64,000 nt of DNA from an uncultured Gammaproteobacteria bacterium (GCA_964372415.1 CAYJQH010000002.1:21803-85802); one strand, 5' to 3'; counted from the first letter of the stretch, positions 9,482 through 53,940 are shown. Notes: a model not told the origin generated them from the sequence alone. Numbers and translations: made by a program.

Positions 9482-9498
9482 AGCAGTGTGAATTCCAT

Positions 9499-9543
9499 GT
9501 CACGAGTAACCCATCGCCAAAGAGTTGACGGGTTACTCATGAC
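9499..9543. promoter_or_regulatory. 14-bp inverted repeat (GTCACGAGTAACCC-N17-GGGTTACTCATGAC) just upstream of mraZ
   Basis: Near-perfect inverted repeat (13 of 14) lying 18-62 nt upstream of the mraZ ATG on the minus strand. Candidate operator or promoter-embedded hairpin. Confidence 0.4.
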
Positions 9544-9809
9544 AAGGGGAAGTTTCCCGAAATTCGGACACCATTATTTGCTGCATGACTACGTTGCGGA
9601 ACTCAGATTTTTTCCTTCCGTACGGTTTAAGTACGCCTCAAAAAATCTTCCCCGCGCCTTGCCCTGCAGCAAATACTGGCGTCCTCTGTTGAACAACAGA
9701 ATAATCAGCACACCCCACTTTGTGCCGCTGAGCACCACTTTACACCATTATTTTACCAACCCAAACCAAAAACCACCTTTTCTGTGGATAAAATTTACTT
9801 TAACCTAAT

Positions 9810-17359: not shown

Positions 17360-17863
17360 TCACTGTCGAGAAGTATCCACACCTCCGCCAAGACTTTTTT
17401 TCTCAATCACGTCAAGGGTTCCAGCCGGCACCTTACTTCGCCATGCTTTATTGCCACTTGCAATCAACTGACGAATTTCCGCGCCAACAATGCCTGGCAC
17501 TGGCACCACTTTTTTCGTGGCGATATTTTTCTTTTCGAAAATTGATCGTACCGCTTCGTTGCCACTCCAAATCACCGGCTCGGTTGGGTTATTAGCAGCA
17601 TCGAGCACATGGACTGCCCAATCTTCATCAGCTGGCGCGTCCTTAACAACGGCAATAGTTGCGTCCGGCAGATTGGCCGCCAACAGGGCGCCAGAAATCA
17701 TTTCGCGACGTTGTTCTAGTGTGAAAGGGTCTTCGTTACCGTTCTTGACCCCATCGCAAATAACCACGACAACGCTATCAGACAATTTTGCCATGCCTTG
17801 GACAACCATCAGGTGTCCGTTATGAAATGGCTGAAATCGACCAGGGAAAATAAGCGTGGACAT
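17360..17863 (-). CDS. Archaeal-type nicotinamide-nucleotide adenylyltransferase (NadM-like cytidylyltransferase fold)
   Basis: GRFQPFHNGH (HxGH) motif at the N-terminus; 167 aa. Confidence 0.7.
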   Translation of the reverse strand: MSTLIFPGRFQPFHNGHLMVVQGMAKLSDSVVVVICDGVKNGNEDPFTLEQRREMISGALLAANLPDATIAVVKDAPADEDWAVHVLDAANNPTEPVIWSGNEAVRSIFEKKNIATKKVVPVPGIVGAEIRQLIASGNKAWRSKVPAGTLDVIEKKSLGGGVDTSRQ

Positions 17864-17866
17864 AAG

Positions 17867-18787
17867 CTAGTCTGTCATTAGTCGCTCTTTGGTCATAACC
17901 GGGAGCGCAAATTTTCGAGTCAGCTGAGTTAAAAGAAGCGGCGGAACATCAATCTTGGACATGTCATTTGTCCCTGTGCCGCGCCCCGACAAGGCCTCAA
18001 GATAACCAATGTCATGAGGATCAAAACCCATGAGCGTGGCCGCTACGGCATCGGCGGCAACTGGATCAGTACTCGCCAACACTACTCCCATTGAGACCGG
18101 CGTGCCATCAACTGGGCCATCACCTTCCATGCCCAGGATACCATCAATAACTACCAAATCGCAGGGTAAATGTTTAAAAAGCTGAGCAATGAGCTCATTG
18201 GCTGCTGCCAGTCCATAAGCGTTGAGCCAGGGAGCCCGAGACCAAACCCGTCCCTGAATACCTACCCGTGAGGGCACAATCATCGTTGCCTCAGACCACG
18301 AACTGATAGCGAGTGACGCCCCATAAACATGATGGGTCTTAAGAGGCGCGACGGCAATTCGTAAATCACAATCACGCACCAATCGTGGCCGACGAACCGC
18401 GACAGTTCGACCTTCAACCAGATATGATTCCTCGTAAATATCTTCGTCGTTCAAGTCGACGAGTGAAAGATTGACGTACTGCGTGATTAAGCCTTCATAG
18501 CCAAAATTTCTAAAACTAGCCTTAGTGCCGTAATGCGCCCCGTCGGCGATCACAATAGGAACATCGGTATATACCCGAATCTGATCCAAGACTCCCCGTA
18601 CCGCGTCAACGTGGGTTGAGGCAAGTTGCAGTTCATGATGCGTTAGGTTGGGCTGAATTAGAATCTGCTTGGCGGATCTAAAACGAGCCACAGCCTCATT
18701 GCCAAGCTCATCGATTGCCTGGCGCACAGCTTTTCGACGATGTTCGTTCTGGATCAAGGCAACCTTCTGCATAGCTGGCCTGAGCAT
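17867..18787 (-). CDS. DUF362 domain protein
   Basis: 306 aa with the GILGMEGDGPVDG motif characteristic of DUF362. Confidence 0.5.
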   Translation of the reverse strand: MLRPAMQKVALIQNEHRRKAVRQAIDELGNEAVARFRSAKQILIQPNLTHHELQLASTHVDAVRGVLDQIRVYTDVPIVIADGAHYGTKASFRNFGYEGLITQYVNLSLVDLNDEDIYEESYLVEGRTVAVRRPRLVRDCDLRIAVAPLKTHHVYGASLAISSWSEATMIVPSRVGIQGRVWSRAPWLNAYGLAAANELIAQLFKHLPCDLVVIDGILGMEGDGPVDGTPVSMGVVLASTDPVAADAVAATLMGFDPHDIGYLEALSGRGTGTNDMSKIDVPPLLLTQLTRKFALPVMTKERLMTD

Positions 18788-18815
18788 ACACAGGCTACCT
18801 TAGAGAGGCAATGAG

Positions 18816-20051
18816 TTATTCGTAACGCAAAGCTTCAATTGGACTTTTCCGGGAAGCGCGTAGCGCTGGGTAAAGCCCAAAAACAATACCAGTAATAGCC
18901 GCTACGACAAGCGCTGCCCCGGCGGCTGAAGAGGGAAAAATATAAGTCCACTCCATATTGATTATTGAGCTTAAAATCTTCGATGCCAAAAACGACAATC
19001 CTGATCCGAAAATTATCCCTATTAGGCCGCCAAGAGTTGTGAGTAATAAAGCTTCAAAAAGAAACTGCAAAAGAATGTCTCTGTTTCTGGCTCCGAGTGC
19101 TTTACGCAAGCCTATCTCTTTGGTCCGTTCAGTGACAGCCACCAGCATAATATTCATAATGCCAATACCACCGACTACGAGAGAAATCGCCGCAATCGCC
19201 GAAAGAAAAACGGTCAAAATGTTGGTTACGCTAGCTACTTGTTTGGCTGCATCAGCTTGGGAAGTAACATGAAAATCGTCGTTTATAGGATCGTCAATAG
19301 AATGTTCCCGACGGAGGGTGCTTAGAATTTCCTCCTTAGCGAGCGGTACAGCTTCTTCACTTATGGCCTGAGTAATAATCATGTTGTAGTGATCAATGTC
19401 CACCATATCCTGAGCGGTGGTGTAAGGGATGAGCACCATGAAATCGACTTCGAAGAGACCAAAAAAACCCTTCTTATCAAACGTGCCAATAACTTCAAAT
19501 TCTTCGTTCTGTATCTCAATCGTCTGCCCAACTGGATCTTGGTTCGGGAATAATTCCTGACGCACCTCAAACCCAAGTACCGCAACTTTACGCTTAGAAG
19601 AGACATCTTCCTCCCTTAGCAAGCGACCGGTGGAGAGTGAGACACCAAAAACCGAGGCAAAATTTTCCGTTGAACCGGTAGTACTCGCTTCGGCCGAAAA
19701 CTTGTCAATCATCACCCGGCCAGGAACAAAAACAACAGGGGCTAAATCAACCAAATTTGGTGCGTTTGCTTTATCACTCAACACCTCAAGATCACTGTTT
19801 TTAAGAGAATTAGACAAAAGGGACACAAGATCAGAAGGCGTTTCGGGCATCGGTCCTGGCTCAATAATAATCGTGCCGAGGCCAAGCCCTTGAATTTGAC
19901 CCAAAATCAAATTCTCGGCCCCCTGCCCCACGGACTGGATGAGGGTGATTGAGGTCACGCCAATAACAATGCCAAGAATCGTGAGCGCAGAACGCGTGGC
20001 GTGGGCCCAAAGGCCCGACAAGGCGGTCTTGAAAGCGTGAGATATTTTCAT
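18816..20051 (-). CDS. ABC transporter permease, MacB/FtsX-like
   Basis: N-terminal TM helix, large periplasmic domain, and a C-terminal FtsX-like 3-TM module; 411 aa. Confidence 0.8.
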   Translation of the reverse strand: MKISHAFKTALSGLWAHATRSALTILGIVIGVTSITLIQSVGQGAENLILGQIQGLGLGTIIIEPGPMPETPSDLVSLLSNSLKNSDLEVLSDKANAPNLVDLAPVVFVPGRVMIDKFSAEASTTGSTENFASVFGVSLSTGRLLREEDVSSKRKVAVLGFEVRQELFPNQDPVGQTIEIQNEEFEVIGTFDKKGFFGLFEVDFMVLIPYTTAQDMVDIDHYNMIITQAISEEAVPLAKEEILSTLRREHSIDDPINDDFHVTSQADAAKQVASVTNILTVFLSAIAAISLVVGGIGIMNIMLVAVTERTKEIGLRKALGARNRDILLQFLFEALLLTTLGGLIGIIFGSGLSFLASKILSSIINMEWTYIFPSSAAGAALVVAAITGIVFGLYPALRASRKSPIEALRYE

Positions 20052-20929
20052 AATGAGTCACGGCTATCGCTTGCTATTTGTCCGTCTTTAATTCGAATCG
20101 TCCTTTTGGCCTGGCTTGCCGTCCAAGCATCGTGAGTGATAACAATAATGGTTCGACCTTTGGCGTGAAGATCATTTAAGGTTTCCATAACCGTCTGTCC
20201 AGAGACAGAGTCAAGATTTCCCGTTGGTTCATCGGCAAAAATGACCGCAGGATTATTAACTATCGACCTCGCAATCGCCACGCGTTGTTTTTCGCCTCCG
20301 GAAAGCTGGTTGGCTGTGTGGTTTAAGCGGTGCGAAAGTTGAACGGACTGAAGAGCCGTGGTGGCTAACTCGTCCCATATGCTTTTTGGCGTTTTTGAGT
20401 ACATGAGAGGGAGCTTCACGTTTTCAAGCACCGTAGCACGAGGCAAAAGATTGAAGGCTTGAAAAACAAAACCTAAACTCTCGTTACGCAAACGAGCTAA
20501 GGCATTTGGAGAAAGTTGTTCGGTATTGAGACCAGAAAAAAAATATTCACCGCTACTTGGTCGGTCAAGACAGCCAAGTAATTGCAAGAGCGTAGACTTG
20601 CCAGATCCCGATGGGCCCATGATGGCAATAAATTCTCCCTTGTTTATTGAAAGATTAACGTTCCGGAGCGCGACAGTTTGAACGCCGCCTGTTTCGTAGA
20701 CCTTACATAAATCGCGTGTTTCAATGAGAGCTTTTGCTGGCGTGACAGTGCTAGTTAAAGAAACTGTTTTGGCGCTCAAACGGGGCGTAAGGTTCTTGAA
20801 AGCATAACGAAGCTGACGCTTAGACCAACCTACACGTAACAACTCGTCGGAAATTTTTAACTCATCCAAACCCTGCTCTTGGGCGGCAATTATATAGGCC
20901 TTTAACTTTTCTATTTCTGCGGGTGTCAT
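20048..20929 (-). CDS. ABC transporter ATP-binding protein (MacB/LolD-like) with a ~75-aa N-terminal extension
   Basis: [11 protein letters not shown]alker [14 protein letters not shown] signature and a Walker B. 4-nt overlap with the permease gene. Confidence 0.85.
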
Positions 20930-20995
20930 AAAGGTGGGAGGTTACTCTGGTCAAACCGAATTAACAATCCCCAATAAAACAAAGCGTGGTAAAAG

Positions 20996-21024
20996 TTGAA
21001 ATTTTTCTCAACTTCAGCTATCAT
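20996..21024 (+). promoter_or_regulatory. Candidate sigma70-like promoter (TTGAAA-17-TATCAT) upstream of the tRNA-Gln leader element
   Basis: Hexamers read directly from the sequence with a 17-nt spacer. It lies ~45 nt upstream of the conserved element at 21055. Confidence 0.35.
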
Positions 21025-21054
21025 GATTACAATTTTTAACAAGAAAACGTATTA

Positions 21055-21169
21055 AGTTTCGTCAGTTACGAGGAGGAGACGAGTAAGGGCGAGGCGTACT
21101 GATAAGTACGGTGAGTCCGACGGAGTCGACGACGAAGTAAATGGCGAAACTTGGATACGTTTTCTATAC
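21055..21169 (+). ncRNA. Conserved tRNA-abutting element, copy 1 (candidate structured leader or ncRNA)
   Basis: Shares the blocks CGAGGAG…GAGGCGTAC-loop-GTACGGTGA…CCGGAGTCG…ACTTGGATA…TAC with 34156-34307 and 26277-26369, and ends exactly at the tRNA-Gln 5' end. The hairpin stem covaries between copies (GTACT/AGTAC versus GTAGT/ACTAC). Confidence 0.5.
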
Positions 21170-21243
21170 TCCGGGATCGTCTAAGGGCAGGACAGCGGCC
21201 TTTGAAGCCGTGAATCTTGGTTCGAATCCAAGTCCCGGAACCA
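21170..21243 (+). tRNA. tRNA-Gln (anticodon TTG), CCA encoded
   Basis: Manual cloverleaf: acceptor TCCGGGA/TCCCGGA, anticodon loop CTTTGAA, T-arm CTTGG-TTCGAAT-CCAAG. Confidence 0.85.
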
Positions 21244-21246
21244 AAA

Positions 21247-21280
21247 AACCTCGACACAATTTCGAGGTTTTTTGTTTTTG
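21247..21280 (+). terminator. Rho-independent terminator after tRNA-Gln
   Basis: Hairpin AACCTCGACACAATTTCGAGGTT followed by TTTTTGTTTTT. Confidence 0.7.
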
Positions 21281-21417
21281 AGTTTAAGAATTTAGTATTC
21301 GAGACGAGTTTGGGTGAATGGGGAAGATTTTTCCGAAGCGTAGTTCATGCTACGGTGAGGAAAAATCGGGGCCCCATGAGGCCAAAATTGGCCGAATAAT
21401 AAATTCTCCAAAAAGAA

Positions 21418-21465: not shown

Positions 21466-23025
21466 TTAGAGGTCGTCGAGATCGTTCGACATGTCCTCGA
21501 CCGGCACGGCTTCGTCTTCGACGAAGTCAACCGAGGTGGCCATGGTCCGCCGGATGGCGGTCTCCACAGCCTCGGCGATCTCCTCGTTTGAGAGCAGGGA
21601 CGGACGCTGCGGGTGCGACAGCGACCCGTTCAGCAACATGCCCGCCTCGACGAAGAAATACCAGTGCTGCGCCGGCTCCGGCAGATCTCGGCCGGCCGCC
21701 TCGCCATTATGGAAGTTGTCGATGATCCGCCGAACGTCAGACACGAGGTCAGCATGATCGATCCTGACCTCGGACCAACCGGCGCGTCGGGCCTCGGCGA
21801 GAGCGATCTCCTCGGCGATCTCCCAGATCTGCTGCTTGTTGTCATCGGACGTGAAGACGCTCACGTTGCCGCTCGATCGACGGATGACGACCACCTGAGC
21901 CTGATGCACGCTCCGAAGCCACGAGCTCATCTTTCGGAGATTCGTCTCGGCGAAGGCCACTCGCACCCCAGAAATCTGGCGCAAGAGGCCGTTATTTTCC
22001 TGGAAGGATTGTGCGCATTCCTCTTGAAACTCGCGAGCACTCGCCAAGTAGCAGTTGAAGATCTTGAAGACCTTCCGGCCAAGCTCCTCCGGGGACATCT
22101 TGCCCCAAATGTTCAAAGCCGTGACCACGGAGTCGAGCTCGAACGGCAACTGCTTGCGGTCCGGCTCGCGGTACCGCTTGAGCTCCCTTAGAAGGTAGCG
22201 CAAGAGCTTGGCCTCACGATCCTCCACCCTCTTGAAGTTGAGGCCAAAGAACTTGGCCACCTCGTCCGCCGTCGTGGACGGCGGAAAGTGTCCGCCTTCA
22301 ATATCCACGAAGATGGTTCGCGGATTCTCCAGGTACTCTCTCAGGGTTTCCGCGTCCGCGTAGACGAGCTGCGGCTCGTTCAGATACCGCCCGACGATCC
22401 AAGCCTTGGCCAATCCATTCAAGGTGGCGTAGGCCGGAACCACGATAGTCGGTCGACGGAGCTTGCGCATGGCTTCGGCCGTCATCGGCTCGGAAGCCGT
22501 AGACAGAGCGAGGGGCACAGTGAGCGGTCGCGCCATGGGCTGACAGCTCGCGCCATAAAGATGCGCATTGACCACGGCCTCGATCCAGTTGAAGACCCAC
22601 AAGTCGTCGACCTTCTGGTCCTTGCCCCACCATTCGAGCGTCTTGACCACCTCCCCCCATTCGAGGCGAGTTTGTCCGGACACTGCACCCTGGTCATCCT
22701 TGCGCGTGTCAGCGCGGCGAATTTCCGAAAGCAGCGTCTTGTACTCGGATCTGTCGAACAGTCCAAGTTCCTTGGCGGTCAGAGTGGCGGCGCACTCGCC
22801 GGGCAATCGGCCATCCAGCCGGTGCTCGTCAAACATTCCGCCACCAATGCCGATCAGGGCCACCGTGGAGTCACCAAGAAAGGTGCGCTTGGCGCGCTCC
22901 TCATCCCAGAACTCCACCGTGGCTTCAGGATTGGCCCGGCGGATGAGCGCCGCGGCCACGTGCTCGTCGGCATGTGCCCCTCGGTGGGAAACGGCCAGCC
23001 TGAGCTTGAGCGGATCGAGAGCCAT
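21466..23025 (-). CDS. GC-rich hypothetical protein with an N-terminal MYG1/UPF0160-like metal-dependent hydrolase motif and an acidic C-terminal tail
   Basis: 519 aa. N-terminal VSHRGAHADEH…IGIGGGMFDEHR resembles the HxGxFHADE…GG.YD..HH pattern of the MYG1 family. AGGAG lies 8 nt upstream of the ATG. GC content is much higher than in the neighbouring genes. Confidence 0.45.
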   Translation of the reverse strand: MALDPLKLRLAVSHRGAHADEHVAAALIRRANPEATVEFWDEERAKRTFLGDSTVALIGIGGGMFDEHRLDGRLPGECAATLTAKELGLFDRSEYKTLLSEIRRADTRKDDQGAVSGQTRLEWGEVVKTLEWWGKDQKVDDLWVFNWIEAVVNAHLYGASCQPMARPLTVPLALSTASEPMTAEAMRKLRRPTIVVPAYATLNGLAKAWIVGRYLNEPQLVYADAETLREYLENPRTIFVDIEGGHFPPSTTADEVAKFFGLNFKRVEDREAKLLRYLLRELKRYREPDRKQLPFELDSVVTALNIWGKMSPEELGRKVFKIFNCYLASAREFQEECAQSFQENNGLLRQISGVRVAFAETNLRKMSSWLRSVHQAQVVVIRRSSGNVSVFTSDDNKQQIWEIAEEIALAEARRAGWSEVRIDHADLVSDVRRIIDNFHNGEAAGRDLPEPAQHWYFFVEAGMLLNGSLSHPQRPSLLSNEEIAEAVETAIRRTMATSVDFVEDEAVPVEDMSNDLDDL

Positions 23026-26135: not shown

Positions 26136-26211
26136 TGGAGCCACTTCCGGGATTTGAACCCGGGACCTCTGCTTTACGAAAGCATTGCTCTACCGCTGAG
26201 CTAAAGTGGCC
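26136..26211 (-). tRNA. tRNA-Thr (anticodon CGT), CCA encoded
   Basis: Reverse complement is GGCCACTTTAGCTCAGCGGTAGAGC…TTCGTAA…GGTCCCGGGTTCAAATCCCGGAAGTGGCTCCA. Confidence 0.85.
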
Positions 26212-26230
26212 TAGAAAACGTATAACCAAA

Positions 26231-26259
26231 TTATCGACCATGAGAAAACTGATTTAAAC
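26231..26259 (-). promoter_or_regulatory. Candidate promoter of tRNA-Thr (TTTAAA-17-GATAAT on the minus strand)
   Basis: Read directly from the sequence. The promoter-proximal sequence TTGGTTATACGTTTTCTA resembles the 3' end of the tRNA-abutting element copies. Confidence 0.35.
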
Positions 26260-26276
26260 GGCCAAATACTAAAAAC

Positions 26277-26369
26277 AGCGAGGAGCGAAGTGAGGCGTAG
26301 TTAATACTACGGTGAACGAGCACCGGAGTCGCGACAACGCAGTTGGTTATTTGAATCAGTTTTTTGTAC
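26277..26369 (+). ncRNA. Conserved tRNA-abutting element, copy 3 (plus strand, ending at the 3' CCA end of the minus-strand tRNA-Gly)
   Basis: AGCGAGGAGCGAAGTGAGGCGTAGTTAATACTACGGTGAACGAGCACCGGAGTCGCGACAACG…TTGGTTA…TTTTTTGTAC. The hairpin carries compensatory changes relative to copies 1 and 2. Confidence 0.45.
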
Positions 26370-26444
26370 TGGAGCAGGAGACGGGACTCGAACCCGCGAC
26401 CCTTTGCTTGGGAAGCAAATGTTCTACCACTGAACTACTCCTGC
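26370..26444 (-). tRNA. tRNA-Gly (anticodon CCC), CCA encoded
   Basis: Reverse complement is GCAGGAGTAGTTCAGTGGTAGAAC…TTCCCAA…GGGTCGCGGGTTCGAGTCCCGTCTCCTGCTCCA. Confidence 0.85.
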
Positions 26445-26593
26445 GTTTTAAGCGCAAAATATATAGCACGATTTTACTATCCAGTCTAGACTAAGTCTCG
26501 GGTTTCTGCTAACCTTTAGCCGCATCGTGATCCCCATGATGCATCAAGCCAACCCTTTCCACTACAGCGCTCCCCGCGCTGAGCGGAGAGTCC

Positions 26594-27124
26594 ATGATCC
26601 TCGAAACCAGGGCGGTAATCCCCCGCCTTTCGCTCCAGTCGCGACTCCCCCGTGCAGCCAGCATCATCCGCCCCAAGCTGACCGATGATGGCAATCTGAT
26701 CTTGATCCTCAACCCCGAGGGTCTGATCCGCATCCATCTCCGCCGTGAGAACGTCGACAATCAGGCTCTCTACGAATGCCTGGTGGTCGACGAAGAAGGC
26801 CGGCCCCTCGAGCTCTTCTTCGGACGCGGCATCTGCGACGCACTCCTCAACGCCTGTGCCCACCTCGTGGAACACGGCGCCGTCATCCTCCCCGTGAGCG
26901 ACGAAGTGCGCGGCAAGTACATCTCGAACGAACGGCATCACAAGTCGGTCCGCCTGAACTTCGACGACACGAAGGACCTGTCCGTCATCGAGGTGATCCG
27001 GCTCCGACTCAACACCTACGAGGTCAAGATCTTCGACGAGCCGCTCCCGGGATTCTTCTCGAACCCCGTGCTCGGCGTCATCGGGGGCCTGTATTACCTC
27101 AAGGCGAAGGGCTACCTCATGTAG
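26594..27124 (+). CDS. GC-rich hypothetical protein (176 aa)
   Basis: ATG preceded by GGAGAG. GC-rich codon usage. Followed by a nested GC hairpin and T-run terminator. The antisense ORF (26516..27169) has an Asp/Glu/Gly/Val-rich composition typical of an artefact. Confidence 0.5.
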   Translation: MILETRAVIPRLSLQSRLPRAASIIRPKLTDDGNLILILNPEGLIRIHLRRENVDNQALYECLVVDEEGRPLELFFGRGICDALLNACAHLVEHGAVILPVSDEVRGKYISNERHHKSVRLNFDDTKDLSVIEVIRLRLNTYEVKIFDEPLPGFFSNPVLGVIGGLYYLKAKGYLM

Positions 27125-27140
27125 CGCCGACTCGTTCCCC

Positions 27141-27190
27141 TCCCGCACTCCCTGGCTCCCCCGAGCCATGGCGTGCGGGAATCTTTTTTT
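27141..27190 (+). terminator. Rho-independent terminator (CCCGCAC…GGCTCCCCCGAGCC…GTGCGGG followed by TCTTTTTTT)
   Basis: Read directly from the sequence. Confidence 0.65.
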
Positions 27191-31397: not shown

Positions 31398-33920
31398 TTA
31401 AGATTGTAACAGACGAAGCTTGGTAAACTCCATGAGAAGTAATTTTACCGTTAGACCGGCTAAGAATATGGCGAATACAGTTAGTCCCGGCCAGCCCAGA
31501 TCCAGAGTTACGGTGAGACCGGGAATGAGTAGTGGCAGAAAGAGCAATAGGCCACTCACTAAAAGCGCCATTGAGAGTAGCGGATTGTTGAAAATTCGCA
31601 CCTTCCATAAAGGCTGCCGTAAAACACGAAGAACATAAATGCTAACCAAGGAATCAAGACCAAGAGCCAGAAAAACCATGGTTCTAGCTATATTCTCACT
31701 GAAGCCGAGTTCAATCGCCGCGACGTACAAAGTAACTAACATCACAACCGACAGTCCGCCAATAAACAGCGTCCACTTACCTAATTCTGAACCGATAATC
31801 GACGACCCTTTTGGTCGAGGATATTCCTTCATAATGCCTGGTTCAGCTGGCTCTGTAGCGAGCGCCATGGCGGGCAAACCGTCGGTAACTAAATTAATCC
31901 ACAGAATATGAATCGGTCCTAACGGCAAAGGAAAGCCTAAGATCAGAACGGCAGCAATAAGTGCTACCTCGCTTAAGCTAAAAGTTAACAGGTAAACTGT
32001 TACTTTGCGAATATTATCGTAAATAGTGCGACCCTCGCGTATAGCATCAATGATCACCTGAACATTACTTTCAAGAAGCACCATATCGGCAGTCTCTTTA
32101 GCGACATCAGTGCCGCTCCCGACGGCAATGCCGATTTCGGCGGCACGCAAAGCGGGAGCGTCGTTCACTCCATCCCCAGTCATAGCGACCGAGAATCCAC
32201 GTCGCTGAAAGGCTTTTACAATTCGCACCTTTTGCTCAGGCAAAACTCGCGCATAAACCCCAATATCTGCCACCAAACGTTCTAGCTCGGCATCCGATAA
32301 TGTCGTCATTTCGGTACCGGTAATTACTCTCTCACCGTTTGTGAGTAAACCGATATCGCGAGCCACCCGCTCGGCGGTTGCGGGATGATCACCGGTCACC
32401 ATAACTACGCGGATGCCAGCATTCATTGCTTGAGCAACAGTTTGTCGAGCTTCCGGTCGGAGCGGATCAGCAAGACCAATGATGCCTAGCGCAGTAAAAT
32501 CAACCATGGCCTTGACTGAAAATTCTTGCGGTACGTCATGTTGTCGCTTAGCTAGTAAAAAAAGCCGCAACCCACGCTTGGCCAAACTGTCGATTTCCGT
32601 TTCCAGACGAATTCTTGTGGCATCATCAATATCGCACCGCGCCAAGACTACCTCAGGGGCTCCCATGAGATACCAAACTACCCCGCCGTCTTCTTGAACG
32701 GCTCTAGCCGAAAATTTTCGGACTGAATCAAAAGGCAACTCAGCAATAATTTGCGCCTCCGTAAAAATACTTTCGGCCGATAAGTACTTTTGAAAGGCTG
32801 TCTGACTGGCGCTTGCCAAATCACCCTGACCACGCACAAAAAGAGATAAAGCGTGATTGATCTCTGACTTTGTCACATAATCCCTCACTTTAACCTCGAC
32901 AACAGTCATTTCGCCGGTCGTGAGCGTCCCGGTTTTATCCACACAAACTACATTAACCTGCCCCAGTGTTTCGGCGGCTAAAAGCCGTCGTACCAAAGCT
33001 TTTTTTCTAAGCATCCGTTGCATACCAGCAGTCAAAATAACGGTTAAGGCAACGCCTAAACTCTCAGGCACCACAGCTACCGCGAGGGCAGCTGCAATGG
33101 CCAAGAGGCTGGTAGTTTCAATACCACGCCAAGCGCCAAGAATAACCACAAAAGCCGCAGACAATAAGGCGATGCCAATAATCAGGCGCGACAAACCGTA
33201 AAGTTCCCTCTGTAGTGGAGTGGGCTCGGCTTGAATATTCGTCACCATACCTGCCACGCGACCAAACTCGGTGGCTGAGCCAGTTGTGACAATTACTGCC
33301 TCACCTATTCCAGCCATCACAGTTGTTCCTGCAAAAACCATTGAGGCTCGCTCAGTTATCGAGGTTTCATTAGACACCGGAAATATTTGCTTACCAACTT
33401 CGCTCGATTCTCCAGTTAAAGTTGACTCATTGACCGCTAAAAAATTCGCCACGATCAAACGGCTGTCAGCTGTAATCCTATCTCCGGCTGAAAGAACAAC
33501 TATATCGCCGGGCACCAATTCGATAGCTGATAGTCGAATCAGCTTCCCCTCGCGACGCACGGTAACCTGATATTCAAGCTTCTGCTCCAAGGCAGCCAAG
33601 GCGTGATCAGCGCGATACTCTTGGTAAAAACCAAGCAGCGTGTTACCAAGTAGAATAGCTAGGATCAAACTAGCATCAATACTCTCCCCCAGGGTAACGC
33701 TCACGGCCGCGGCGATGGCCAAGATAAAAACTAAGGGACTTTTGAGTTGACGTACTAAGTACGTAACTGTCGTCACGCGTCGTGGCTTAGGCAGTTCATT
33801 CTTGCCGTAATCCAACAGTCGCCGCTTCGCCTCCTCGGCGCTCAGCCCATCTCGGCTCACCCCCTGAGCCCGCATCACCTCCTGAACCGGCATCGCGTGC
33901 CAAGGCAAAACCTCCACCAT
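31398..33920 (-). CDS. Cation-transporting P-type ATPase (Ca2+/Mg2+-type, P2/P3-like)
   Basis: 840 aa with DKTGTLT, TGDGVNDAPAL and 10 predicted TM helices. Has the cation_ATPase N-terminus. Confidence 0.85.
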   Translation of the reverse strand: MVEVLPWHAMPVQEVMRAQGVSRDGLSAEEAKRRLLDYGKNELPKPRRVTTVTYLVRQLKSPLVFILAIAAAVSVTLGESIDASLILAILLGNTLLGFYQEYRADHALAALEQKLEYQVTVRREGKLIRLSAIELVPGDIVVLSAGDRITADSRLIVANFLAVNESTLTGESSEVGKQIFPVSNETSITERASMVFAGTTVMAGIGEAVIVTTGSATEFGRVAGMVTNIQAEPTPLQRELYGLSRLIIGIALLSAAFVVILGAWRGIETTSLLAIAAALAVAVVPESLGVALTVILTAGMQRMLRKKALVRRLLAAETLGQVNVVCVDKTGTLTTGEMTVVEVKVRDYVTKSEINHALSLFVRGQGDLASASQTAFQKYLSAESIFTEAQIIAELPFDSVRKFSARAVQEDGGVVWYLMGAPEVVLARCDIDDATRIRLETEIDSLAKRGLRLFLLAKRQHDVPQEFSVKAMVDFTALGIIGLADPLRPEARQTVAQAMNAGIRVVMVTGDHPATAERVARDIGLLTNGERVITGTEMTTLSDAELERLVADIGVYARVLPEQKVRIVKAFQRRGFSVAMTGDGVNDAPALRAAEIGIAVGSGTDVAKETADMVLLESNVQVIIDAIREGRTIYDNIRKVTVYLLTFSLSEVALIAAVLILGFPLPLGPIHILWINLVTDGLPAMALATEPAEPGIMKEYPRPKGSSIIGSELGKWTLFIGGLSVVMLVTLYVAAIELGFSENIARTMVFLALGLDSLVSIYVLRVLRQPLWKVRIFNNPLLSMALLVSGLLLFLPLLIPGLTVTLDLGWPGLTVFAIFLAGLTVKLLLMEFTKLRLLQS

Positions 33921-34155
33921 AGTTGGGAGTATTTTATCATCAAAAACCTCCTAAAATTTATCCCGGCGTTGTCGCGTCGCCATGCTCGGACTCGCCGTAG
34001 CTCTACTACGCCTCGTCCTGCGCTATCGTCGCTCCTAGCCGGAATAAATTTCTATGAGGTTTTTGGTACACCTACTCTACTCTTTTCAAAATCTTAAATT
34101 TTTGCTATCCTTTGCCCGATATTTCATTAGTCTGTTGAGAGAAAACCTAATAAGG

Positions 34156-34307
34156 TTCGTCAGTTTTACAGATTATTGCGTTGGCCTACTAAGTTCGGCG
34201 AGGTTCAAGGAGCAACGAGGACCGACTGAGGCGTACTTGAAAAGTACGATGAAGGAGGCCCGGAGTTGCACGAAGAAGATCGTCGAACTTGGGTAGGCCA
34301 AAGGTAC
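34156..34307 (+). ncRNA. Conserved tRNA-abutting element, copy 2 (upstream of tRNA-Lys)
   Basis: TTCGTCAGTT…AACGAGGACCGACTGAGGCGTACTTGAAAAGTACGATGAAGGAGGCCCGGAGTTGCACGAAG…CGAACTTGGGTA…GGTAC, ending at the tRNA +1. It has a GAAA-loop hairpin and a 50-nt insertion in its 5' part. Confidence 0.5.
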
Positions 34308-34382
34308 GCGCTGGTAGCTCAGTGGTAGAGCAAAGGCCTTTTAAGCCTGTGGTCGTGGGTTCGATCCCCACCCGGCGCACCA
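34308..34382 (+). tRNA. tRNA-Lys (anticodon TTT), CCA encoded
   Basis: GCGCTGGTAGCTCAGTGGTAGAGC…CTTTTAA…GTGGGTTCGATCCCCACCCGGCGCACCA. Confidence 0.85.
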
Positions 34383-34412
34383 AAAAACACCCAGCTTTGG
34401 GTGTTTTTTGTT
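34383..34412 (+). terminator. Rho-independent terminator after tRNA-Lys
   Basis: ACACCCAGCTTTGGGTGT followed by TTTTTTG. Confidence 0.7.
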
Positions 34413-35059
34413 TATTTAGTACACACGATTTTTAATGTTTCATTCTCCCAAACAAACCAGGTGGTCTCATCGTTATTTTCGAAACCCAGTAGATTGCTAG
34501 AGGTTTCATAGACGTAGCCTCTTTCGGTCGTTTCTCCATATTCATAAATCTCTCCGGTATCGGCATCGACGATGGCCATGCCATAACAGCCCTCGCTACA
34601 ACCCCATTCGGCAAATACATACTTGCCAGCAAAATTCACTCCGCGATTGACATCACGCGTTATTGCCGTTCGATGATGCGTGGCGGCCTCGTTGCTTGAA
34701 AAATCCGGAGCTGCGACACGACCTTGATATACGTCGACGGAATAATCAGAAAATGTTGGCGTCGAAGCACAAGCTCCATTTGACTGAGCCTCTAGGGTCC
34801 CGACCGGCTCGTTTAGTTCGTGATCAATTCTTATCTGAGTAAATTGATGGGTTTCTTGGTTGAACGATAGTCGAGTGCTGTCTGGACTAATGCACGTGGG
34901 TTGGCTAGCTCCGTATAACCATTCCCCACCTACTTCCTCGCAATGCATCATGTAGTGGCGAACGGAGCCTTCAGGTGGAGCCAAAAAAATAGCCGTGGCG
35001 CCGCCTGCAGCTGCCAAACCTGCAATAATCACAAAAACAGCTGATTGTAAGCGTGTCAT
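34412..35059 (-). CDS. Hypothetical secreted or membrane-anchored Cys-rich protein
   Basis: 215 aa with an N-terminal hydrophobic segment and 8 or more Cys. No recognisable domain. Confidence 0.45.
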   Translation of the reverse strand: MTRLQSAVFVIIAGLAAAGGATAIFLAPPEGSVRHYMMHCEEVGGEWLYGASQPTCISPDSTRLSFNQETHQFTQIRIDHELNEPVGTLEAQSNGACASTPTFSDYSVDVYQGRVAAPDFSSNEAATHHRTAITRDVNRGVNFAGKYVFAEWGCSEGCYGMAIVDADTGEIYEYGETTERGYVYETSSNLLGFENNDETTWFVWENETLKIVCTK

Positions 35060-52083: not shown

Positions 52084-53940
52084 ATGATTGCCCGTACCGT
52101 CAGTCTGTTTCTGGCTCTGGTTAGCCTCATCGGCTGCGCTTTTTATTATACGTCTAAACTCACCACGCCGATACTTGTCATAACGCTTCTCCTTGCCCTG
52201 CTCGTCACCTTACTTATTACCCTTAAAAAACCTGGACTTAAAGTAACACCCTTAAAATTACGACTAACCACTCTTGAGGGAATTATTGGCGCCAGCGGTC
52301 TGTTTTGTCTTATCTTGTGGTGGCTGCAAATTTTTCCGTTGCGTGAAGCTTTCCTTAACCAAGCCCACCGCACCCTCTGGGATGTAGTCAACCCGGAATA
52401 TCTTTTTCTTATTGCTCTTGCCTGGTGGTGCGTTTTACTTCTCGCCTACCGCGCCTCATGGCTCGCTTGGCCGCTTGCCAGTCTTACGCTTTTTAGCGGC
52501 GTTGCTCTGGCCGCCTCGCTCTTTCCGCTAGGTTTTGGCTTTGACCCATTCATTCATCGAGCAACCATTGAACACCTTGCAAATTTTGGAACGATCACTC
52601 CTAAACCGCTTTATTACATTGGGCAATACGTGCTTGAACTCATTGCCGTCAAGCTCTTTTTTATACCCCTTAACGTGGTTGATAGTCTGCTCGTTCCAGT
52701 GCTGTTTTCGGTTCTCGTTCCACTTTTTCTTATTGGGCAACGTCAACCGATTGTCTTAGCCACACTTGTCTTAATACCTCTTGGAATCTTTGTCCAAACC
52801 ACCCCCATGGCTTTGGCGCTTCTTTGGACCTTATTAACAGTACTTGCACCGCGAGAGCCTAAGTATCTGCCAGCTATTTTGTCACTCGCCGCGCTCCTCA
52901 CTCATCCGCTTACTGGCATACCCGCTGTTATTTACGTGGTCTTACTCACGGGTGATGAGTTTATTACCCACCGTTATCTTCGTCAGGCATTTCGGGCTGT
53001 AATTTTTACAGTGTCTAGCTTAGCTATTCCTCTGGCCTTTGTAATTCAAGCAAAAATTTCTGGTTTAGCTTTAAACTTCGATTTTGGGCATTTGTTCGCC
53101 TGGACTGAATTGCCGCTAACGAGTTTTATAGGCACGCACTGGCAAGTCTTTGGCGACCTCGCCTACACTTTCATAAAAAACTCCCAGATATTCTTGGTTA
53201 TCTTAGCAATACTTACTCTCGTTATGGTTCCGGCTAGCCGCCGCCTGGCTACGCCCAATATTCTCATCGCTGCCTCGCTCCTCGTAAGTTTTATTGTGCT
53301 CAGTCTGGGCTTTGATTTCAGGTTTCTTATTTCTTATGAACGAACAGATTTTGCCTTACGACTCCTAGGCATCACGCTCCTTTTTTTGATCCCCATACTT
53401 CGTGATGGTGTGGTCGCCTTATTTGATCGAGTAAAACCCTTTCCGGCTCTGACCTTGGGAATTGTAGGACTAAGTACCATGATGTTCGCCGCCTTCACTT
53501 ATGGCGCCTATCCGAGGCACGATAACTACGCCCGTTCAGCCGGCTTCAATGTAACAACACTCGACTTAGCCACCGTTCACGCTATAGACAATTACCAAAC
53601 GGGAGAGGAATATGCAGTCCTTGCGGATCAGGCACTATCAGCGGCGGCGATTAGAGAATTCGGTTTTGTTAAATATTATCCCGGCGATATCTTTTACTAT
53701 CCTGTACCAACCGGTGGGCCACTTTACGCTATCTACCTTGATCTTGTAGAAAACGGACCTGAACTACAAAAAATTGAACAAGCCATGGAACTTACTGGCG
53801 TTGATCTAGTGTTCTTTGCCATTCATGGATATTGGTGGCAAGCTGACCGTCTAATTGAAAACACTAAACCTCTGGCTCGTGACTGGTTTGCTTTTGGCCA
53901 AGGCGAGCAAGGCATCACGATTTTTGTTTTCTCACGCTAA
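52084..53940 (+). CDS. Large polytopic membrane protein (618 aa), possible GT-C-like or polymerase-like enzyme with a C-terminal soluble domain
   Basis: About 14 TM helices and a ~150-aa soluble tail. No firm family assignment. Confidence 0.45.
   Translation: MIARTVSLFLALVSLIGCAFYYTSKLTTPILVITLLLALLVTLLITLKKPGLKVTPLKLRLTTLEGIIGASGLFCLILWWLQIFPLREAFLNQAHRTLWDVVNPEYLFLIALAWWCVLLLAYRASWLAWPLASLTLFSGVALAASLFPLGFGFDPFIHRATIEHLANFGTITPKPLYYIGQYVLELIAVKLFFIPLNVVDSLLVPVLFSVLVPLFLIGQRQPIVLATLVLIPLGIFVQTTPMALALLWTLLTVLAPREPKYLPAILSLAALLTHPLTGIPAVIYVVLLTGDEFITHRYLRQAFRAVIFTVSSLAIPLAFVIQAKISGLALNFDFGHLFAWTELPLTSFIGTHWQVFGDLAYTFIKNSQIFLVILAILTLVMVPASRRLATPNILIAASLLVSFIVLSLGFDFRFLISYERTDFALRLLGITLLFLIPILRDGVVALFDRVKPFPALTLGIVGLSTMMFAAFTYGAYPRHDNYARSAGFNVTTLDLATVHAIDNYQTGEEYAVLADQALSAAAIREFGFVKYYPGDIFYYPVPTGGPLYAIYLDLVENGPELQKIEQAMELTGVDLVFFAIHGYWWQADRLIENTKPLARDWFAFGQGEQGITIFVFSR

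Follow-up and report, generated by a model that had tools for sequence, protein, structure and literature searches.

The stretch analysed here, called the window below, comprises 64,000 nucleotides (CAYJQH010000002.1:21803-85802 of assembly GCA_964372415.1, deposited as an uncultured Gammaproteobacteria bacterium) and carries six copies of a long, rod-shaped hairpin, several of which lie beside tRNA genes. It is ordinary chromosome, encoding uvrABC, mur ligases, murG, mraZ, CTP synthase and ABC transporters. A preliminary description, made from the sequence alone, had noticed three loci that share ordered blocks and had read them as a conserved element of ~95 nt always abutting a tRNA gene. 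These three loci do exist: the window contains the core GAGGCGTA-N(8-9)-TACGRTGA at exactly three places (21091, 26292 and 34228), always on the + strand, whereas 100 shuffles did not contain it once, and the hairpins GTACT-GATA-AGTAC, GTACTT-GAA-AAGTAC and GTAGT-TAAT-ACTAC had been quoted correctly. However, the element measures 120-125 nt, the ~95 nt having covered only the upper part of the hairpin, and a covariance model adds three diverged copies (copies 4, 5 and 6), so that the count of three holds for the exact core and not for the window as a whole.

Copy 1 is a complete rod hairpin at 21042-21165 (+ strand; boundaries mapped; covariance-model score 57.6 bits), with its apical domain at 21063-21143 and a closing stem in which AGAAAACGUAUUAAGUUUCGUCAG pairs with UGGCGAAACUUGGAUACGUUUUCU. 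Upon folding, its minimum free energy (MFE) is -52 to -58 kcal/mol, with a z-score of -7.2. The tRNA-Gln(UUG) gene (21170-21243, + strand; found by ARAGORN and scoring 60.6 bits with the Rfam tRNA model) begins 4 nt past the hairpin base. On the other side, a consensus scan picked up a sigma-70-like promoter, TTCTCA-17-TACAAT (21005-21033, + strand), which is a resemblance to the consensus only; it ends 8 nt before the hairpin base, and the transcription start predicted from it (~21040-21042) is that base. An intrinsic-terminator-like hairpin followed by a T run (21242-21284, + strand) ends the unit, whose order is promoter-like site, hairpin, tRNA-Gln and terminator.

Copy 2 (34181-34301, + strand; 72.9 bits) lies 6 nt before tRNA-Lys(UUU) (34308-34382, + strand; ARAGORN), after which a terminator is present at 34381-34410. 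Its full hairpin has an MFE of -59.6 kcal/mol, the first fold having given -44 kcal/mol (z -5.2), and the consensus scan found no promoter for it. Copies 1 and 2 had been rightly placed before same-strand tRNA genes starting at 21170 and 34308, but the element had been run up to the last nucleotide before the tRNA, and the hairpin base itself lies 4 and 6 nt earlier, respectively. An upstream TTCGTCAGTT box, reported as a further conserved part, exists as well, but it is not one feature: that of copy 1 is the 5' strand of its closing stem, and that of copy 2 is an orphan 5' half-stem of the copy-1 type, AGAAAACCTAATAAGGTTCGTCAG (34140-34163, + strand), which sequence comparison identifies as the leftover of another copy. 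At L101, in a related genome (L numbers designate loci retrieved outside the window), a copy-1-type hairpin precedes tRNA-Lys.

Copy 3 (26243-26365, + strand) has the top score in the window, 76.4 bits, and folds like copies 1 and 2 once wider flanks are included; its closing stem contains four G·U pairs and one A·C. It had been listed with the others as abutting a tRNA gene; in fact it does not precede a same-strand tRNA but is antisense to a tRNA-Gly/tRNA-Thr pair, its 3' end lying 4 nt from the CCA end of tRNA-Gly(CCC) (26370-26444, - strand; ARAGORN and Rfam). The second gene of the pair, tRNA-Thr(CGU) (26136-26210, - strand; ARAGORN), has upstream on its own strand a promoter-like site and, directly before the tRNA, an orphan 3' half-stem, TTGGTTATACGTTTTCTAG (26211-26230, - strand), recognised by comparison with copy 1, L111 and L119. 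In the relatives L111 and L119 an intact hairpin precedes tRNA-Thr, where the window keeps only this remnant. The promoter-like site reads TTTAAA-17-GATAAT (26258-26230, - strand) and extends over the deletion point.

Distribution and fold of the hairpin family

We scanned one-genome-per-species contigs with a 21-base pattern made of the core and GGAGT. Twenty of the 23 genome matches are genuine, all in Patescibacteria, as are all 19 of the 19 metagenome loci; the other three genome matches, in Lachnospiraceae/Faecalimonas, lie inside coding sequence and are due to chance. The genuine genome matches come from Saccharibacteria, Gracilibacteria, Doudnabacteria and two metagenome-assembled genomes (MAGs) that are labelled Gammaproteobacteria and carry the hairpin types of the window. 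A covariance model, R1, was built from 21 sequences and found further diverged copies in the flanks of the retrieved loci. With R1 added to the pattern scan, the total came to 49 copies in 35 loci, 41 of the copies being distinct; they are exclusively from genomes and metagenomes of Patescibacteria, or Candidate Phyla Radiation (CPR), and folding gave the same rod in every copy. The covariance-model search suggested in the preliminary description thus returned both more copies and more compensatory pairs across the CPR. The element had also been called lineage-specific, which does not agree with its presence in Saccharibacteria, Gracilibacteria, Doudnabacteria and other Patescibacteria. A strain-level comparison of presence and absence met with only one exact-match contig (L133, described below), and the near-identical Gracilibacteria loci proved to be from one and the same organism.

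In viral contigs the core pattern gave 90 matches, all of them chance, none having the stem or a downstream GGAGU, and the element was not found in phage and plasmid collections. The two MAGs (CAZXUX… and CAYZYJ…), labelled 'uncultured Gammaproteobacteria', carry CPR-type hairpins at L092, L094, L096, L101, L109, L111 and L112; their label is probably wrong, and no closer relative of the window than CAZXUX was found here.

Each copy consists of a closing stem of 19-27 bp, whose sequence is unrelated between copies and in which only the pairing is kept, and of a purine-rich apical domain of ~85 nt, which is conserved. The apical consensus, …CGAG…GGAGY-GAGG-CGUA[loop]UACG-GRUGA-R…CGGAGU…, is built on tandem G·A loops. 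Starting from the base, it comprises a helix with a GA/GA loop, a covarying 5-bp helix, CGAG opposite CGGAG (tandem G·A with one bulged G), a 2+2 bp helix flanking an A·A mismatch, the mirror-image CGGAG opposite CGAG, a covarying 2-bp helix, GAGG opposite GRUGA (G·A, A·G, a near-invariant G·U and G·R) and the CGUAN/NUACG stem with its free loop. Owing to the pseudo-twofold symmetry of the core, CGAG-N3-CGGAG is present on both arms. In the alignment, the most conserved positions are unpaired purines, about 25 of which are invariant. In the clade of the window an A run precedes the stem and a U run follows it, GAAAAC…GUUUU(C/U), and copy 3 ends in six U. The GUUUU(C/U) tail is found in copies 1 and 3, L094, L101, L109, L111 and others, and is missing from L091, L092, L095, L103, L105, L110 and L125.

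The preliminary description had deduced a conserved RNA structure from compensatory changes in one hairpin stem. This is borne out, and well beyond that single hairpin: among the 41 distinct sequences, 91.2% of the pair cells hold standard pairs as compared with 70.9% in column shuffles, and 13 of the 18 pairs show changes on both sides. In a control where the partner was slid by 1-3 columns, 23-47% were paired. A hand-made alignment of 21 sequences, not fitted to the model, gave the same covariation picture.

We also examined the polarity of the fold, by a count of the closing stems in which G·U and A·C are scored alike and which is therefore symmetric for both strands. Watson-Crick pairs number 675 in these stems, beside 62 G·U, 11 A·C and 31 mismatches, and the excess of G·U over A·C (62 versus 11) has a binomial p of ~1e-9. 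In addition, the purine-rich strand, taken as sense, is the more stable one in 42 of 43 copies (-50.5 versus -38.1 kcal/mol), and the G·U pair beside the apical stem is kept in 37 of the 41 distinct sequences. Since the sense-strand folding bias is also observed in copies that are antisense to their neighbours, the G·U excess and the stability bias indicate that the selected form is a single strand of fixed polarity, for which RNA is the simplest candidate.

The preliminary description could not place the element in a known family, and neither could we. Rfam 15, searched at gathering thresholds with the window and 39 loci, returned only tRNA and LSU rRNA, and a search of copies 1, 3 and L092 at E up to 10 gave nothing credible across the hairpin. 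The element is not described in the literature that we searched on structured RNAs, small RNAs, repeats and tRNA flanks of CPR and Saccharibacteria, and neither a leader nor a hairpin is mentioned in a paper (PMC13011429) that deals with group I introns of tRNAs in Patescibacteria. With no Rfam entry and none in this literature, it is an undescribed family.

Several identities were considered and dropped. For 6S RNA there is no Rfam match, and a rod of 120 nt with small symmetric loops, present six times in 64 kb, differs from an RNA of ~180 nt with a large central bubble and one or two genes. A DDE-type MITE (miniature inverted-repeat transposable element) was rejected for want of target-site duplications and of conserved terminal inverted repeats with a variable interior, and a retron or other reverse-transcriptase-linked non-coding RNA because the neighbours are housekeeping genes, none of them recurrent. 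Signal recognition particle RNA, sarcin-ricin/loop E, attC, REP, kink-turn and group II intron domain V were each discarded because a defining feature did not fit. The kink-turn shares tandem sheared G·A/A·G pairs beside a Watson-Crick helix with a bulged purine (CGAG opposite CGGAG); in the rod, however, the bulge is 1 nt instead of 3 and the motif, as read from the alignment, is repeated at least four times along a pseudo-twofold structure. The sequence GAGGCGUA…UACGGUGA resembles what we take to be the domain V pattern, GAGCCGUAU…GUACGGUUC, with G·U at the same place. Unlike domain V, it has AGG instead of the AGC triad and lacks the 2-nt bulge, the upper helix and the GNRA loop, and the Rfam intron models gave no match; the resemblance is probably a coincidence.

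Genomic context and predicted transcription units

For the genomic context we counted the 48 copies with scores of 35 bits or more: 22 have a tRNA end immediately 3' of the element, and one has such an end immediately 5'. In these 22 copies the tRNA end is 21-35 nt past the 3' end of the model match, that is 0-11 nt past the hairpin base; 18 of these ends are 5' ends of same-strand tRNAs and four are CCA ends of opposite-strand tRNAs (as in two further, weak copies). Gaps on the 3' side are mostly 0-12 nt, with L116 (~30 nt) as an exception, and those on the 5' side always reach at least 23 nt, a polarity that fits a gene needing room for an upstream promoter. Overall, the 3' end is almost always directed at a tRNA gene or at the end of an adjacent gene. 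Many different tRNAs are involved, and one copy (L107) precedes 23S rRNA. Two layouts recur: hairpin, tRNA, inverted hairpin; and tRNA, inverted hairpin, hairpin, tRNA.

The element had been said always to abut a tRNA gene, which is the case for only about half of the 48 copies. Some copies face the CCA end of an opposite-strand tRNA, one precedes 23S rRNA, and many lie between protein genes, where they are often antisense to both neighbours. Many copies without a tRNA lie between two opposite-strand genes, with their 3' end at, or slightly into, the stop codon of the convergent gene (L093, L094, L095, L100, L102), and others occupy the leaders of same-strand genes, namely rpsA (L106), a glycosyltransferase gene (L098), mraZ (copy 6) and a P-type ATPase gene (copy 5). 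An all-against-all BLAST of the open reading frames (ORFs) from 39 loci revealed no recurrent neighbour protein, genes being shared only by orthologous loci. Likewise, no transposase, integrase or reverse transcriptase was found among the scanned ORFs of the window, and none recurs in the 35 loci.

The layout of a tRNA leader, on the same strand, directly upstream and with no promoter in between, was observed for copies 1 and 2 and 16 others, with a gap of 1-11 nt between hairpin base and tRNA +1 (~30 nt in L116). Copy 3, the other antisense copies and the ~26 copies without a nearby tRNA are arranged differently. Since there is no room for a promoter between hairpin and tRNA, the same-strand tRNAs must be transcribed through the hairpin. 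The consensus scan detected sigma-70-like sites for the 23S leader copy L107 and for the tRNA-leader copies L124 and L128, 14-18 nt ahead of the hairpin base; over all copies, -10-like hexamers are ~1.6-fold enriched 4-23 nt upstream of the base, a weak signal. A terminator scan around copies 1-3 called none of the hairpins as a terminator, and tRNA-Gln and tRNA-Lys each have an ordinary terminator of their own. Given the leader position of copies 1 and 2 and the promoter-like site and terminator of the copy 1 unit, co-transcription followed by release by RNase P is the natural reading for both. The suggestion of a tRNA leader or co-transcribed RNA processed by RNase P thus suits these two copies; it does not extend to the whole family, which includes antisense, 23S and protein-gene copies.

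Nearly all genes of at least 200 aa in the window are on the - strand, and the GC skew is negative across 1-64000. Despite this bias, tRNA-Gln, tRNA-Lys and the four strong hairpin copies are on the + strand, so that their transcription would run head-on to the inferred direction of replication.

A proposed structured RNA family and its rivals

The reading that we favour, tentatively and somewhat short of calling it probable, is that these hairpins would constitute a CPR-wide family of ~120-nt rod RNAs, which commonly head tRNA or rRNA transcripts, would be released by RNase P and would bind a protein through their apical domain. The purine-rich strand would be transcribed from a promoter just upstream of the base, as the consensus matches suggest for four copies and as we suppose for the rest. 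Where a tRNA or 23S rRNA lies downstream, the rod would be the 5'-terminal part of the precursor; judging from the known action of RNase P, a cut at tRNA +1 would then free a discrete rod whose two ends are enclosed in a helix. At 3' ends that adjoin the end of a convergent gene or tRNA, both transcripts are probably terminated by the hairpin itself. The symmetric, non-Watson-Crick apical domain would most likely be a protein-binding platform, possibly for a dimer.

A more specific proposal, which we consider possible but unlikely, is that the rods would be the RNA subunits of a CPR-specific ribonucleoprotein: stable RNAs of ~120 nt encoded by multiple genes, expressed mainly from tRNA and rRNA promoters, cut by RNase P, bound by a dimer and acting in trans. 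Such a role would be, for example, in the processing of stable RNAs, or in the control of translation through the GGAG/GAGG motifs.

Small RNAs linked to tRNAs and cut out by tRNA-processing enzymes are known from MALAT1-mascRNA, from plant tRNA-snoRNA units and from the E. coli 3'ETS-leuZ spacer RNA. As in these systems, where a non-tRNA RNA on a tRNA transcript has one end set by a tRNA-processing cut, copy 1 has the same layout, the cut being a prediction here. Unlike them, the rod is multi-copy, CPR-wide and located 5' of many tRNAs, and about half of its copies have no tRNA.

Several observations weigh against a family of processed RNAs. Most copies have no promoter by the strict scan, and the promoters reported are consensus matches only; for copy 3 the consensus scan detected none on the + strand. 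Copy 3 and its relatives (L109, L111, L119 and L122) are antisense beside tRNA 3' ends, and since ARAGORN and Rfam do not recognise an antisense tRNA, release by RNase P is doubtful for such copies. Divergent hairpin pairs lie as little as ~20 nt apart, and at least five copies are placed between two opposite-strand genes, some of them with only 23-44 nt on their 5' side. The loss of the hairpin before tRNA-Thr in the window, where a remnant is left, indicates that it is dispensable for that tRNA. In addition, four copies of one MAG (L092, both copies of L096, and L112) are near-identical, scoring 82.7-85.8 bits; L094 and L109 carry an identical apical domain, free loop included, on unrelated closing stems; and the type of hairpin that precedes tRNA-Lys, tRNA-Gln and tRNA-Thr differs between the window and its closest relative. 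These near-identical, mosaic and shuffled copies resemble a spreading or recombining repeat.

The strongest rival is a selfish, non-autonomous palindromic repeat of the ERIC/Correia/REP kind, spreading or recombining in CPR and preferring tRNA and gene ends; its apical domain would be recognised by a mobilising machinery, as RNA or as a single-stranded DNA intermediate, and effects on neighbouring genes would be secondary. We judge it unlikely. In its favour, the element is multi-copy and strictly intergenic, with six copies in 64 kb, and takes either orientation relative to its neighbours. Each of the four near-identical copies stands before a different tRNA (tRNA-Arg, -Leu, -Met and -Gly), and a double-hairpin block is 92.5% identical between L119 and L122, where it lies between different tRNA pairs. 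To these are added the mosaic copies, the orphan half-stems and the hairpin types shuffled among tRNAs, and the junctions to both kinds of tRNA end are tight (0-11 nt) and share a …UAC tail. Moreover, the only public contig encoding the identical ABC ATPase (L133, 3.5 kb, same species, corresponding to 17633-21133 of the window reversed) ends inside the apical domain of copy 1, which is consistent with a repeat breaking short-read assemblies.

Other features do not fit such a repeat. We detected no target-site duplication, the longest word shared by the two flanks averaging 3.69 as compared with 3.67 ± 0.16 in shuffled pairings, and the searches for mobility genes and for copies in viral contigs, phages and plasmids reported above were negative. 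The variable termini and conserved centre are the reverse of what DDE-type MITEs show, the core is kept across CPR phyla with compensatory changes, and the orientation towards tRNAs is biased (18 same-strand versus 4 opposite). ERIC/IRU and the Neisseria Correia elements are imperfect palindromic intergenic repeats of ~100-155 bp that are transcribed and folded. The rod, likened to them by description only, resembles them in size, intergenic location, presence in both orientations and many copies, and formation of an RNA hairpin. It differs from ERIC and Correia in lacking target-site duplication, in its variable ends, conserved centre and purine-rich non-Watson-Crick loops, in the polarity of its 3' end towards tRNAs and in its CPR-wide occurrence. 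REP/BIME sequences associated with RAYT transposases are likewise intergenic palindromes, often just after genes, but REPs are 20-40 nt long with GTAG or CGTC tags, while the rod is ~120 nt long, has another core and has no RAYT-like gene nearby.

The RNA-family and selfish-repeat readings are not mutually exclusive. In a still bolder variant of the ribonucleoprotein proposal, the element would have spread via an RNA intermediate, by tRNA-primed or template-switching reverse transcription, which would explain the exact …UAC joints to both tRNA ends.

An improbable alternative is a purely cis-acting element of the transcript, such as a 5' leader or spacer hairpin of stable-RNA and other operons, which would serve RNase III as a processing stem or would be a stabiliser, attenuator or bidirectional terminator, with no role as a free RNA. 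The near-perfect closing stems of 19-27 bp do have the size of RNase III substrates, and copies lie exactly where terminators of convergent genes belong as well as in the leaders of tRNAs, 23S rRNA, rpsA, mraZ and the P-type ATPase gene. The GAAAAC…GUUUU(C/U) flanks of the window's clade and the six-U end of copy 3 would suit a terminator, but U runs are missing in most lineages, tRNA-Gln and tRNA-Lys already possess ordinary terminators and transcription into a copy placed as a terminator would read the less stable strand. Furthermore, a terminator or processing stem needs neither ~25 invariant unpaired purines nor a conserved G·U. Least likely of all, a hairpin of single-stranded DNA, formed by one DNA strand as a site for an HUH-type transposase or recombinase or in another replication-linked role, would account for the strand-specific folding whatever the local gene orientation, for the four strong copies of the window being all on the + strand, opposite almost all genes, and for the lack of target-site duplication, which fits such enzymes. 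Against it, gene orientation and GC skew indicate that the purine strand is here not the lagging-strand template that these systems use, the neighbourhood yielded no HUH or recombinase gene, the 18 versus 4 bias in tRNA strand is a transcription-type signal, and a conserved G·U wobble with tandem sheared G·A pairs is typical of RNA.

CPR bacteria, which are ultra-small, represent a large share of bacterial diversity; their genomes are tiny, and they are almost unstudied at the RNA level. If the hairpins are real RNAs, they would be among the few CPR-specific structured RNAs and a bacterial case of small RNAs in series with tRNAs. A selfish repeat, should the hairpins be one instead, would be unusual in being conserved at its centre, in making no target duplication and in being aimed at both ends of tRNA genes, and would help to explain the shuffling of tRNA genes and the assembly breaks in CPR genomes. 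On either reading, the covariance model allows annotators to mask or label these regions.

Diverged copies and further observations

Copy 4, a diverged rod hairpin formed by GAAGCGUA…UACGGUGA (21287-21407, + strand; covariance-model match 21305-21391, 39.2 bits, E 3e-10; MFE -55 kcal/mol), sits between the terminator of tRNA-Gln and that of the convergent gene 21466-23025. Both tRNA terminators, that of tRNA-Gln (21242-21284) and that of tRNA-Lys (34381-34410), start within the encoded CCA; in each, the stem is preceded by A residues and followed by a T run, which gives them a bidirectional look. All four tRNA genes of the window, placed by ARAGORN and Rfam, encode CCA. Sizeable ORFs without a Pfam match lie near the elements at 21466-23025, 26516-27169, 34412-35059 and 52084-53940.

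In one Saccharibacteria subgroup (L098, L100, L106 and L131) the closing stem is short and the element measures 89-101 nt. There, another conserved stem-loop comes after the hairpin (the two L131 copies, for example, have AGCAGGCCRAGCUYUGCUUGGACUG), and this may be part of a larger RNA.

Copy 5 (33939-34067, - strand; match 34041-33964, 27.2 bits, E 3e-6; MFE -61 kcal/mol) is divergent from copy 2 and located in the leader of the P-type ATPase gene (31398-33920; Pfam). AGGAGG is present in its 3' arm (33938-33955, - strand), with an ATG 6 nt further on that does not share the frame of the ATPase ORF; the ATG of the ATPase itself, at 33920, has no obvious ribosome-binding site. The AGGAGG and the out-of-frame ATG could belong to a leader peptide or to a sequestered start site.

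Copy 6, the weakest (9566-9684, - strand; match 9667-9583, 14.6 bits, E 0.03; MFE -55 kcal/mol), is a diverged rod hairpin between uvrC and mraZ (Pfam), on the same strand as both. Between it and mraZ lies a second, unrelated perfect hairpin, GUCAUGAGUAACCCGUC…GAUGGGUUACUCGUGAC (9485-9545, - strand), which ends at the ATG.
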